Part shown: piece after piece, positions 11,546 through 13,585 of the stretch
Layout: every line of letters starts with the position of its first letter
Numbering within the stretch: position 1 is the first letter of the stretch
NCBI GenBank assembly: GCA_965277805.1
Contig: OZ255842.1
Coordinates: 5,024,001-5,088,000, forward strand
Source: Candidatus Lustribacter sp.
GTDB lineage: Bacteria > Vulcanimicrobiota > Vulcanimicrobiia > Vulcanimicrobiales > Vulcanimicrobiaceae
Reading direction: 5' to 3'
DNA: 64,000 nucleotides
Translations under genes and position numbers: made by a program
Notes under the pieces: model-generated
What the model saw: the letters and a program-made list of their open reading frames with translations, nothing else
Told to the model about the DNA's origin: nothing
Databases searched by the model: none

Positions 11546-12478
11546 CTATGGGGAGAGGGCGTACTTGACGAGGCGTGGGGGTTCGGTAGTGAAGCCGAGT
11601 TCGGCGGTGACGACGGCGAGGTCGCGTTCGTGGACGATGCGGCGCAGGTCGGGGGCGAGCAGGGCGTGTTGTTCGGGGGTGAGTTCGGCGTCGAGCGGCG
11701 TGGCGGTGATGCGGCCCTCGCGTTCGAGCGCGATCAGGTAGGCGAGGACCTGGCGAGCCGCGGCGGGCCACAGGCGGCGGTCGACGTCGCGGTAGATCGC
11801 GGCGACCATGTCGGGAATGTTTGCCGGTCCGGCGGCGAGGATCGCGAGGATCTCCGCTTCGCGGCGTTCGCGGTGCGCGATGTACTCGTCGATCTTCGCG
11901 CGTGCGTCGTGCATTTCGGGCCCGTGGCCGCCGTAGATCACCGATGCATCGGCGTACTCGTCGCGCAGCCGGTGCAGCGTGCGCTGGTAGACGCGCATGT
12001 CGCCGTTGGGCGGTGCGATCGCGACCGTGCCGGTACCGATGATCACGTCGCCGGTGAAGAGCGCGCGCTCGCCTTCGAGGACGTAGACGAGATGATCGCG
12101 CGCGTGTCCGGGCGTGTGCAGCGCGAGCAGCGATGCGTTGCCGGCGCGCACGCGTTCGCCCTCGGCGAGCTTACGATCGTGCGGGAAGAGCGCGCTCGTA
12201 TGCGCGTATACGGGCGCACCGGTCGCGCGCGACAGCGGCGCGGCGGCGGGATAGTGGTCGGGATGACCGTGCGTGATCAGGATGGCGTCGTAGTGCGCGC
12301 GGGCCGCATTCGCCGCGTCGACGAACGCGGCGATGTGTTCGGGCGCGTCGGGTCCGGGATCGATCGCGATCCACGCGCCGTCGCCGCCGTCGACGACGTA
12401 GCCGTTGGTGCCGTCGAGCGTCATCGCCGACGGATTAGGCGCGCGCAGCCGTGAGACGCGCGGGCCGACCGCTACCAC
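11546..12478 (-). CDS. MBL-fold metallo-hydrolase (LACTB2-like)
   Basis: THGHPDH, HTPGH, FTGD and GGHGP motifs; NPSAMTLDGTN N-terminus. Confidence 0.9.
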   Translation of the reverse strand: MVAVGPRVSRLRAPNPSAMTLDGTNGYVVDGGDGAWIAIDPGPDAPEHIAAFVDAANAARAHYDAILITHGHPDHYPAAAPLSRATGAPVYAHTSALFPHDRKLAEGERVRAGNASLLALHTPGHARDHLVYVLEGERALFTGDVIIGTGTVAIAPPNGDMRVYQRTLHRLRDEYADASVIYGGHGPEMHDARAKIDEYIAHRERREAEILAILAAGPANIPDMVAAIYRDVDRRLWPAAARQVLAYLIALEREGRITATPLDAELTPEQHALLAPDLRRIVHERDLAVVTAELGFTTEPPRLVKYALSP

Positions 12479-13191
12479 GTATTCTCGAATTGCGGCGGCA
12501 GCGCATAGGTCGGTCCGGGCCGCACTTCCGGCGTTACGGGGATCGTCTTCTTCGTTTCGGTGTAGGCCAGCAGATCGTACACGTTCGCAAAACCGCCGAC
12601 GCGCTCGAGGTGCTTGATCGTCGGAAAGATCATCTGCACTTCGTTGCGCTCGACCTCGCCCAAAATGTCGGCCGGGCGCACCCAGCGCCCGTGGTAGGTC
12701 TCCAACTCGTCGGCTTCGGCGATCTGATCCTTCGGAGCGCGCGCGATGAAGAAGCGCGCATCGAAGCGGTGCGGGTTGACCGTCGGCGTGATCCAGCGCG
12801 AGAAGTAACGCACCGCGCGCGCATCGAGCCGCACGCCGAGGTCGATCAGCGTGTCGCTGAACGAGCGATCGCCCTTCAGCATTTTCGTGCGCGCTGCGCG
12901 CAACGCGCTCTGCTCAACCGGCTCGACCGAGAACAGCAACCCGCACTCTTCGAACGTCTCGCGAATCGCCGCGTACGTGAATGCCGGCTCGGCCGGCCGC
13001 CACTGACCCACCATTCGCATTCTCGCTTGCGGTGAGTAGTCGGCTTTGTCGACGGTGCCGCCCGGGAAGACGTAGGCGTCGGGAAATCCGGGCGCGGTGG
13101 AACCGCGCCGCAAAAGGTAGACCTCGATTCCCGCGTCCGTGTCGCGGCAGACGACGACGGTTGATGCATCGCGCGGGGAAGGCACACTCAC
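12472..13191 (-). CDS. NUDIX hydrolase
   Basis: FPGG...AAIRETFEECG and WITP...RFDARFF motifs. Start uncertain (GTG at 13191 or 13200). Confidence 0.88.
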   Translation of the reverse strand: MSVPSPRDASTVVVCRDTDAGIEVYLLRRGSTAPGFPDAYVFPGGTVDKADYSPQARMRMVGQWRPAEPAFTYAAIRETFEECGLLFSVEPVEQSALRAARTKMLKGDRSFSDTLIDLGVRLDARAVRYFSRWITPTVNPHRFDARFFIARAPKDQIAEADELETYHGRWVRPADILGEVERNEVQMIFPTIKHLERVGGFANVYDLLAYTETKKTIPVTPEVRPGPTYALPPQFENTW

Positions 13192-13207
13192 CCGACCCAC
13201 ATTCTGC

Positions 13208-13240
13208 AAAAAAAGAATGGACCCCGGTGGGAGCCCATTC
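13208..13240 (-). terminator. Intrinsic terminator (minus strand)
   Basis: GAATGGGCTCCC-ACC-GGGGTCCATTC followed by TTTTTTT. Confidence 0.85.
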
Positions 13241-13480
13241 TCAAATCTTCTGGATTTGGTCGGTGCGCACTCGTAGCGTAGGCTACGAGTTCACGACCTT
13301 CGGTGGATCTTGCGGTTCCAAACTGGTACCGCCCTCCTTCCGCTGTCGATGAGTGTAGAGGCGTCGGACCTCACCAAAACGGCGAGCAAATCAGCCGTTT
13401 CGGTGCTCAGTACCCAGGTGGATCTTGCGACGTAGGCCGCCCTCCTTGGGTCGAATGTGCGGTGTGTGTACCTCGAGGTG
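13208..13480 (-). ncRNA. Putative structured ncRNA or leader RNA with two copies of an AAGGAGG-hairpin-AAGAUCCA motif
   Basis: Bounded by a sigma70-like promoter and a terminator. Contains several hairpins and a duplicated motif with different loops. No credible ORF. Confidence 0.65.
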
Positions 13481-13485
13481 CACGC

Positions 13486-13514
13486 ATCGTACACCCCCCG
13501 GGCGGGGGCCGCAA
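13486..13514 (-). promoter_or_regulatory. Sigma70-type promoter
   Basis: TTGCGG-N17-TACGAT on the minus strand. Confidence 0.65.
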
Positions 13515-13585
13515 TAGGGCAAAATCGCACCTACTTTTCCACCACATTATCCACCGGGCGGAAGCTTGATCGCGGAGGCCTCGGG

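Follow-up and report, generated by a model that had tools for sequence, protein, structure and literature searches.

The 64,000-nt stretch of the genome of Candidatus Lustribacter sp. analysed here (the window, whose positions give all coordinates of the element, read on the minus strand) carries an RNA-coding region with a divergent VTT/DedA gene upstream of it and a NUDIX gene (12472..13200, minus strand, GTG start at 13200 or, in the same frame, at 13191) after it, the latter followed by a gene with a metallo-beta-lactamase (MBL) fold (11546-12478), all three assigned through Pfam. The region is a stand-alone transcript of ~270 nt, running roughly from 13480 to 13208, with a sigma-70-type promoter and a constitutive intrinsic terminator, and a single kind of module occurs in it twice, as copies A and B. 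An earlier note on this DNA had proposed either a tandem-aptamer riboswitch controlling the NUDIX gene or a stand-alone small RNA titrating a GGA/SD-binding protein. We reject the riboswitch reading: the duplicated motif consists of two polyproline mini-ORFs, each module being read, from comparison among relatives, as a Shine-Dalgarno (SD) site, AAGGAGG, joined to a very short open reading frame (ORF) folded into a hairpin, M-x-x-(Q/E)-D-P-P-(G/K)-...-stop. The NUDIX gene is a neighbour of the RNA, not its conserved partner. Two genomic forms of the element will be distinguished throughout. Type 1 has a single module, which precedes a co-oriented rimP by 230-540 nt (Pfam, tblastn), whereas type 2, the form of the window, has two modules ~110-125 nt apart beside the divergent VTT/DedA gene, sometimes with a VKOR gene in between.

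The promoter can be read directly in the sequence as a -35 element TTGCGG (13509..13514) and, after a 17-nt spacer, a -10 element TACGAT (13486..13491), with CCTATTGC at the first and GGTGTACGAT at the second unchanged in 8/8 same-genus sequences. Other genera have TTGACC-N17-TACGAT at the equivalent position, and GTACGAT, GTAGGAT or GTACCAT is conserved across genera at the -10. An automated promoter scan did not list the window promoter, because TTGCGG fits TTGACA at only 3/6 positions. At the predicted 5′ end, where transcription should start, there is a 10-nt perfect palindrome, ACCUCGAGGU (13470..13479), nearly invariant in 33 type-2 RNAs; as RNA, ACCTCGAGGT forms a weak 3-bp hairpin (local fold energy -0.4 kcal/mol), and it could be a DNA operator for a protein or an RNA dimerisation site. 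Type-1 RNAs carry an ordinary covarying 5′ hairpin in its place.

Module A (13412..13451) comprises a genus-specific closing stem ACCCA/UGGGU, the SD site AAGGAGG at 13447-13441 and the stems GGA:UCC and GCGGC:GUCGC, and scores 43.9 bits (E 1.1e-8) with R1, the covariance model of the module. It holds the remnant of a first mini-ORF, ORF-A (13407..13433), (ACG)-UCG-CAA-GAU-CCA-CCU-GGG-UAC-UGA, that is x-S-Q-D-P-P-G-Y-stop, with an in-frame ACG at 13433. Hairpin H2 follows (13372..13405; arms CACCGAAACGGC and GCCGUUUUGGUG, 12+2 bp, with the conserved loop GGCUGAxUGC), and then module B (13294..13348), with its SD site AAGGAGG at 13339-13333, a GGA:UCC stem, an extended GCGGU.CCA/UGG.ACCGC stem and genus-specific outer stems, which R1 scores at 57.9 bits (E 1.1e-12). 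The second mini-ORF, ORF-B (13283..13321), reads UUG GAA CCG CAA GAU CCA CCG AAG GUC GUG AAC UCG UAG, or MEPQDPPKVVNS and a stop, and its stop codon falls within the 5′ arm of hairpin H4, ACUCGUAGC-CUAC-GCUACGAGU (13269..13290). Downstream there is a small hairpin, CAAAUC/GAUUUG (13242..13258), conserved in close relatives only, and the intrinsic terminator (13208..13242), a 13-bp stem at 13242-13213 with a run of seven U at 13214-13208, which ends 8-17 nt ahead of the NUDIX start. In this regard, the anatomy given by the earlier note holds well. It had described an unannotated, structured unit of ~270 nt with its own TTGCGG-N17-TACGAT promoter, two copies of one module (A at 13451-13412, B at 13348-13294), further hairpins and a terminator just before the NUDIX gene, and we find both promoter hexamers in place and conserved in the genus, both copies, the hairpins H2, H4 and CAAAUC/GAUUUG on the minus strand, and the terminator where it was said to be.

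The coding nature of the modules emerges from how they vary among relatives. An ATG, GTG or TTG between GGAGG and GAU stands in frame with GAU-CCN-CCN in 151/160 distinct modules, the other two frames giving 6 and 1, and eight of the nine modules without such an NUG have an in-frame near-cognate codon instead (ACG 4, CUG 3, AUA 1); the ninth looks like a chance match. The starts are mostly TTG (115), with ATG (28) and GTG (5) as variants, they lie 3-14 nt from GGAGG, and they open mini-ORFs of 8-23 aa. The module alignment lines up the N-U-G on one pair of columns, ahead of which A, G, U and C alternate, and the sequence of the start region differs by lineage (UUGGAA, UUGACG, AUGACA, GUGAGC, AUGAGC) with the frame kept throughout. 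The codons beyond the start vary in a similar manner. Among 157 modules the first Pro codon is CCA in 148, CCC in 4, CCG in 4 and CCT in 1, and the second is CCG in 112, CCT in 22, CCC in 21 and CCA in 2, whereas the codon after Pro-Pro specifies either Gly, through GGC, GGG, GGT or GGA (63/42/11/1), or Lys (33), so that D-P-P-G occurs in 117/157 and D-P-P-K in 33/157; the residue ahead of Asp is Gln (CAA or CAG) or Glu (GAG or GAA). The (D/N)-P-P core is present in 157/157 modules, a figure to be read with the search in mind, since the scan pattern contained (D/N)-P-P and imposed one canonical module per locus, and therefore only second modules and covariance-model matches are unbiased. Those covariance-model matches that fall outside the pattern add the variants GAU to AAU, CCA to CCG and CAA to CAG.

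Larger changes also respect the frame. One locus (L085) has a 3-nt in-frame insertion, two others (L014 and L092) carry a 9-codon version and another (L130) has a very different inner stem, the SD site, the frame and D-P-P being retained in these last three. The stop of ORF-B keeps its position, and where UAA replaces UAG the partner arm of H4 has changed to match; in other genera ORF-A terminates at a UGA in the H2 loop. The resulting peptides are MEPQDPPGxxAR... in type 1, MT(S/P)QDPPG(Y) or ...SKAPTG before the stop for ORF-A in relatives, and M(E/S/T)PQDPPK..S or MTEDPPKE..S for ORF-B orthologues, which start with AUG, GUG or UUG. It is the in-frame starts, the synonymous variation at Pro and Gly, the 3-nt insertion and the ending of the ORFs after 8-23 codons that lead us to read each module as an SD site with a mini-ORF. 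In the window genome ORF-B is intact and ORF-A has no canonical start: relatives read UUG ACG UCG CAA..., or MTSQDPPG(Y), and the UUG has been lost by a 1-nt deletion common to genome G004. Genome G003 has CUG, and G000, the window genome, and G004 have the in-frame ACG only.

The mini-ORFs are embedded in a stable and conserved fold. The RNA has a minimum free energy of -117.3 kcal/mol (z = -4.75), and folds as stable appeared in 0/200 shuffles. Imposed on 33 related type-2 RNAs, a structure taken from the window's own RNA, a choice that somewhat favours it, paired 76.9% of cells, versus 71.5% in shuffles and 29-45% in slid controls. On the same 33 RNAs, RNAalifold gave 35 pairs, 17 of them with compensatory change, and no alternative pairing, the consensus fold being a series of local hairpins. 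Compensatory change affects 12/12 tested pairs in the terminator, 4/9 pairs in H4 (87% of cells paired) and 4 pairs in H2 (70.7% of cells paired). The GGA:UCC stems are almost without variation, at 95% pairing for module A and, pair by pair, 94-100% for module B, whereas the outer module stems hold within the genus only, ACCCA/UGGGU and CGAC/GUCG pairing in 44% and 43% of cells across the family. Fold and code overlap in each module: the GGA of the SD site pairs with the UCC of GAU-CCA, which explains why Asp is always GAU through an intramolecular A-U pair, and the start codon is placed either in the loop or on the 3′ side of the inner stem.

A search with BLAST in 41 related genomes found the full-length RNA in 7/7 other members of the genus and the module alone in seven other genera of the family. 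The module pattern retrieved at least 119 stretches from 185,579 species genomes; among the matches listed, nearly all were in Eremiobacterota, WPS-2 or Vulcanimicrobiota records, with Baltobacteraceae, Velthaea, Lustribacter, Elarobacter and Tumulicola among the names, and the few in other taxa were apparent chance matches or Eremiobacterota-type loci under other taxon titles. The covariance model R1 matched 111/115 other genomes of the family, a count that includes the unpublished genomes G146 and G061 and in which related genomes are not independent samples, against 0/3 in the sister family and 2/32 in the rest of the class, the latter at E 0.006-0.009 and probably by chance. Nearly all the genomes searched in this one Eremiobacterota family carry the element. 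By the same model, 14 genomes have a tandem pair at one locus and nothing else, 96 match once and 2 match on two contigs, so the two forms are mostly alternatives. Leaving out the window's own genome and the tandem locus L161, 28 loci were fetched, and 25 of them precede rimP. No second copy was found upstream of rimP in the window genome, and a genome-wide regular expression gave none either, a search that is powerless on a single genome.

Type-1 RNAs are followed by a separate conserved promoter, TTGCGG-N17/18-TAnnnT, whose -35 element lies inside the descending arm of the RNA's terminator. The 5′ untranslated region of rimP (L010-L013, L016 and ~40 other type-1 loci; for instance L011:1700-1775) contains a near-invariant hairpin and an interrupted U-tract, GCGUGGGCAGGUCCCGCGCUUCGUUGUUG, which looks like a weak attenuator of the rimP-nusA-infB operon, possibly NusA-dependent.

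The riboswitch proposed in the earlier note found no footing. The Rfam 15 families (4227, searched with cmscan) gave no match at gathering score anywhere in the window and none at E<=10 between 13100 and 13650, so the RNA is absent from that collection and matches no described aptamer family. The purine-rich internal loops, taken for an aptamer motif, are really the SD site and the codons CAA-GAU-CCA-CC, and the apical loop holds the in-frame start; identical loops between stems that still pair had been offered as a sign of conserved structure, and the structure is indeed conserved, although the loops are SD site plus codons and the outer stems belong to the genus only. A protein-coding pattern of conservation, named by the earlier note as a result that would count against its proposal, is what the relatives display. 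The gene downstream is not consistently NUDIX: the distance to NUDIX varies (178 to ~3100 nt), in 23 loci a convergent gene comes right after the terminator, and the sister form lies upstream of rimP. Nor is there a mutually exclusive expression platform. Folds of the window RNA constrained by masking the footprint of a ribosome stalled on ORF-A, on ORF-B or on both, or standing at the ORF-B stop, revealed no antiterminator, and the terminator kept a pairing probability of 0.91-0.93 under every one of them. The other branch of the earlier proposal, a stand-alone small RNA, fits the data, with a conserved promoter, a covarying terminator and, in many loci, a convergent gene downstream. The linker between H2 and module B (13357-13369, GGUCCGACGCCUCU) has a CCUC-containing segment conserved within the genus only, and when module A is masked as covered by a ribosome the freed SD-A region is predicted to pair with it.

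Titration of a GGA/SD-binding protein, the role that the earlier note gave to such a small RNA, is conceivable, since the window genome encodes CsrA. A titrating RNA of the CsrB/RsmZ type would, however, be expected to present many GGA motifs in hairpin loops, and here there are only two AAGGAGG sites, whose GGA forms the foot of a stem within what looks like a working ribosome-binding site. Other known identities were tried and discarded. 6S RNA is rejected by the lack of an Rfam hit on the region and by a fold that is a string of local hairpins and not rod-like; RF00013 finds no 6S RNA in the window genome (95%-complete, single contig), with a control that detects it in only 5/14 known genomes. 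A tmRNA is excluded because Rfam finds a normal one elsewhere (G000:C1:181324-181680, 120 bits), with SmpB present, although ARAGORN finds none in G000. Finally, a long protein gene is not sustained, as the 79-aa ORF at 13291-13530 has no Pfam hit and the genus alignment contains 1-nt indels inside it.

How, then, might such an RNA work? To the reading that it is a stand-alone translated small RNA using polyproline stall sites, dependent on EF-P or Pro-tRNA, as a sensing device we give about an even chance. Ribosomes would initiate on the mini-ORFs, with the inner stem presenting or holding the start codon, and would slow down or stall at D-P-P. A stalled or terminating ribosome would keep open the module hairpin and the next hairpin with a stop codon (H2 or H4), and the conformation, the stability or the ribosome occupancy of the RNA would in this way report the capacity for polyproline translation, be it EF-P activity or Pro-tRNA supply. 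Candidate outputs are base-pairing in trans, protein binding and RNA decay; moreover, for this genus alone, the NUDIX-MBL operon, itself without a recognisable promoter, may receive a little transcription that leaks past the terminator. The strong XPPX contexts have D, A, P or G before the two prolines and G, W, D, N or P after them, and work by Peil in 2013 and Starosta in 2014 reportedly makes Pro-Pro with D before and G after a strong EF-P-dependent stall context, a description to which the D-P-P-G/K of the modules corresponds by sequence. The gene efp is present in the window genome, where CCA makes up ~9% of Pro codons. In E. coli, CCA within Pro-Pro motifs strengthens pausing, as one study reports (PMC8129111).

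Data from RNA libraries are in line with an abundant transcript. Part of the window stretch is contained in 17 runs on record as RNA, and contigs from four metatranscriptomes of four studies (rhizosphere, soil, peat and permafrost) cover 13257-13465, some of them identical to the window over 59-131 nt and with a summed word depth of up to 5834. Habitats are named from these four runs only, the small word shares in 24 listed runs having been left aside for that purpose. The flanking genes have no cover and the terminator hairpin little, which is not evidence of absence. These contigs are consistent with a well-expressed small RNA and are not proof of one. In some of them sequencing adaptor takes over at 13461-13465, which is ~15 nt inward of the predicted 5′ end, and again shortly ahead of the terminator hairpin, where one contig, near 13257, continues as a run of 13 A. 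Processing to a core of ~210 nt, polyadenylation and faulty assembly are all possible causes of such ends.

A number of points weigh against the sensing device. The contigs give neither strand nor ends nor level, and DNA may be present in RNA libraries, so that of the features of a dual-function small RNA the promoter and the covarying terminator are seen in the sequences and the strand and ends of the transcript are not seen in the contigs. The strength of DPPG and DPPK as EF-P-dependent stall motifs, and the ranking of contexts behind it, are taken from the literature. The hairpin sequesters the SD site and the start codon and would thereby restrict initiation. ORF-A of the window genome lacks AUG, GUG and UUG, and yet module A is perfectly conserved, so an RNA-level role needing no efficient translation is possible. 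Certain synonymous choices are frozen (GAU never GAC, CAA:CAG 132:2, a GCGG/CCGC stem almost invariant), and pure coding is therefore insufficient as an explanation. Finally, the module homologues are related to one another and not independent samples, and the case is a comparative one: a genome-wide regular expression for an SD site, a start and a DPP-containing ORF of at most 30 aa gives one match in G000, ORF-B, and also one in the reversed genome, which means that the pattern in a single genome is not significant alone.

Among the alternatives, a ribosome-dependent attenuator acting in cis, in which translation of the mini-ORFs would set read-through into the NUDIX-MBL operon of this genus, has most in its favour, and we still regard it as unlikely. 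The RNA and NUDIX are co-oriented, no promoter-like site lies between the U-tract and the nearby NUDIX start, and the arrangement is shared by the window and, within the genus, by six of seven further genomes, with 178-282 nt from module A to NUDIX. Much of what defines a leader peptide is also there, namely an SD site, a start, a short ORF with a coding signature and conserved regulatory codons, the first Pro being CCA in 148/157. The exception within the genus, L008, has NUDIX on the other side of the RNA and on the opposite strand, and in other genera NUDIX is 300 to ~3100 nt away, with 700-3100 nt between it and the RNA in some loci; of ten candidate ORFs inserted in between, nine have no Pfam family and the tenth is the NUDIX domain itself. 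In 23 related loci the terminator is followed by a conserved convergent gene ending 68-253 nt past the last module; a co-oriented gene directly downstream is seen in this genus and not in those loci. The type-1 RNA upstream of rimP is followed by the operon's own promoter. A switch between terminator and antiterminator under ribosome control is likewise missing from the constrained folds of the window RNA, with ribosomes at the stall sites or at the ORF-B stop. The convergent gene (L033:5155-5826, minus strand, and 22 other loci) encodes a protein of ~220 aa that begins with a putative signal peptide and matches no Pfam family, and the terminator may serve both it and the RNA. Geometry suggestive of a classical attenuator, and unlike that of the window RNA, is found at L128: in this single-module variant (L128:4300-4420) the mini-ORF MTPQDPPGYIFEGRA stops within the loop of an intrinsic terminator, and a His-rich ORF comes immediately after. 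The context of L128 (DUF6282, the His-rich ORF, a TonB-dependent receptor) provided no functional lead.

The same coding signature that supports the sensing device, together with the depth of the library contigs and the conservation across the family, would also suit a small bicistronic mRNA whose functional products are micropeptides of 8-14 aa with a QDPPG/K core. We consider this improbable, because only 4-5 residues are conserved and the tails are free in length and sequence, with ORFs from 8 to 23 aa. Moreover, the ORF-A start has been lost in the window genome and its closest relatives with the RNA sequence unchanged, an extensive conserved RNA structure surrounds the ORFs, and hydrophobic or structured features are missing from the peptides.

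A purely non-coding RNA, either a tandem aptamer or a protein-binding small RNA such as one titrating CsrA, with the codon pattern as a by-product of structure, appears very improbable to us. It would account for the very high nucleotide conservation of the module, some synonymous sites included, for the persistence of module A without a canonical start in the window genome, and for the strong structure of an RNA in a genome that encodes CsrA. However, structure alone would hardly produce a frame bias of 151 versus 6 and 1, or the alternation of A, G and U exactly at the first base of NUG, and in L014, L092 and L130 the inner stems have been swapped for others of unrelated lengths and sequences while the SD site, the frame and D-P-P were kept. 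In addition, the class of the downstream gene is inconsistent, and there are only one or two GGA sites per RNA, none in a hairpin loop.

The last alternative concerns the 3′ tail of 16S ribosomal RNA, which in the window genome ends ...GGCUGGAUCACCUCCUUUCU. In both modules AAGGAGG and GAUCCA offer 7 + 6 bases complementary to the 16S tail UGGAUC-A-CCUCCUU, and the sites 13441-13447/13419-13424 and 13333-13339/13304-13309 together match 13 contiguous-but-one bases of it. A decoy holding 30S subunits, in which the module would clamp the anti-SD tail across a three-way junction, would also agree with the GAU that is never GAC and with a sister form beside the gene for a 30S maturation factor, rimP, but this reading is the least probable of all, given that the complementarity was noticed after the fact, that the in-frame starts, the synonymous Pro and Gly variation, the in-frame indel and the conserved stops are left unexplained, that GAU to AAU (7/157) and CCA to CCC, CCG or CCU (9/157) break the 16S pairing and keep the codon meaning or the GGA:UCC stem, and that the intramolecular A-U pair already accounts for the fixed GAU. 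The complementarity is probably a by-product of an SD site next to Asp-Pro codons, though the tail could bridge the hairpin.

Returning to the polyproline sensing device, relatives of it are known. Proline-codon leader ORFs, mgtP and mgtL in the Salmonella mgtCBR and mgtA leaders, sense EF-P or proline, and one paper is said to deal with EF-P and transcription-translation coupling. With these leaders, and with engineered polyproline his-leader reporters, the element shares a short SD-bearing ORF inside an RNA structure in which consecutive Pro codons are rate-limiting. In contrast, mgt-type leaders lie 5′ of the genes they control and act via terminator/antiterminator or Rho sites, whereas the window RNA ends at a constitutive terminator, has two tandem ORFs and often has a convergent gene beyond it. 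Arrest peptides with Pro at the stall site, such as SecM (RAGP), ApdA (RAPG) and ApdP (RAPP), resemble the modules in a short conserved motif ending in Pro-Pro or Pro-Gly near the point where elongation stops; such peptides are, however, of a length that fills the exit tunnel, and they control a gene downstream. Since D-P-P starts at codons 4-10 of an ORF of 8-23 codons, the nascent chain is too short for arrest mediated by the tunnel, and a plain XPPX pause of the EF-P type, or peptidyl-tRNA drop-off, is more likely.

Another precedent is rnTrpL/peTrpL of Sinorhizobium, which, according to two reports (PMC6614838, PMC7968998), originates in a genuine attenuator, that of trp ahead of trpE(G), with Trp codons as the sensed signal. 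By these accounts it is, like the window RNA, a small terminated transcript with a translated leader ORF that may also act in trans; the window RNA differs from what they describe in having no conserved downstream operon and D-P-P in place of the Trp codons. With tandem riboswitches, including ykkC subtype 2c RNAs, the likeness is limited to two similar structured modules upstream of a hydrolase gene in the window genome, and the differences are the lack of an Rfam match, the core of SD site and codons, the unconserved downstream gene and the absence of an expression platform.

In this line, the element adds to two known kinds of regulators, stall-prone leader ORFs and dual-function small RNAs. 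The literature search returned no paper linking 'Eremiobacter' to a riboswitch, and the titles and abstract starts found with 'small RNA' were unrelated, although supplements of RNA-discovery studies may list the element. A practical lesson is that the perfectly conserved internal loops of a candidate riboswitch can be an SD site and codons, and that a simple frame test tells the two apart. If the sensing device is true, stall-prone leader ORFs would not only be found in the 5′ leaders of genes under their control, but would also occur, alone or as a tandem pair, within an abundant free-standing RNA. A bolder version, which we put forward tentatively and hold to be doubtful, makes this abundant free-standing RNA a trans-acting gauge of polyproline translation, its input being a stall and not a ligand or base-pairing, with the rimP-nusA-infB and DedA/NUDIX forms interchangeable. 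The mostly either/or occurrence of the two forms, one of them at rimP-nusA-infB, suggests a link of polyproline translation to the supply of ribosomes or initiation factors. For Eremiobacterota (WPS-2), a phylum widespread in soil and peat with almost no cultured members, this would be the first conserved RNA element described.

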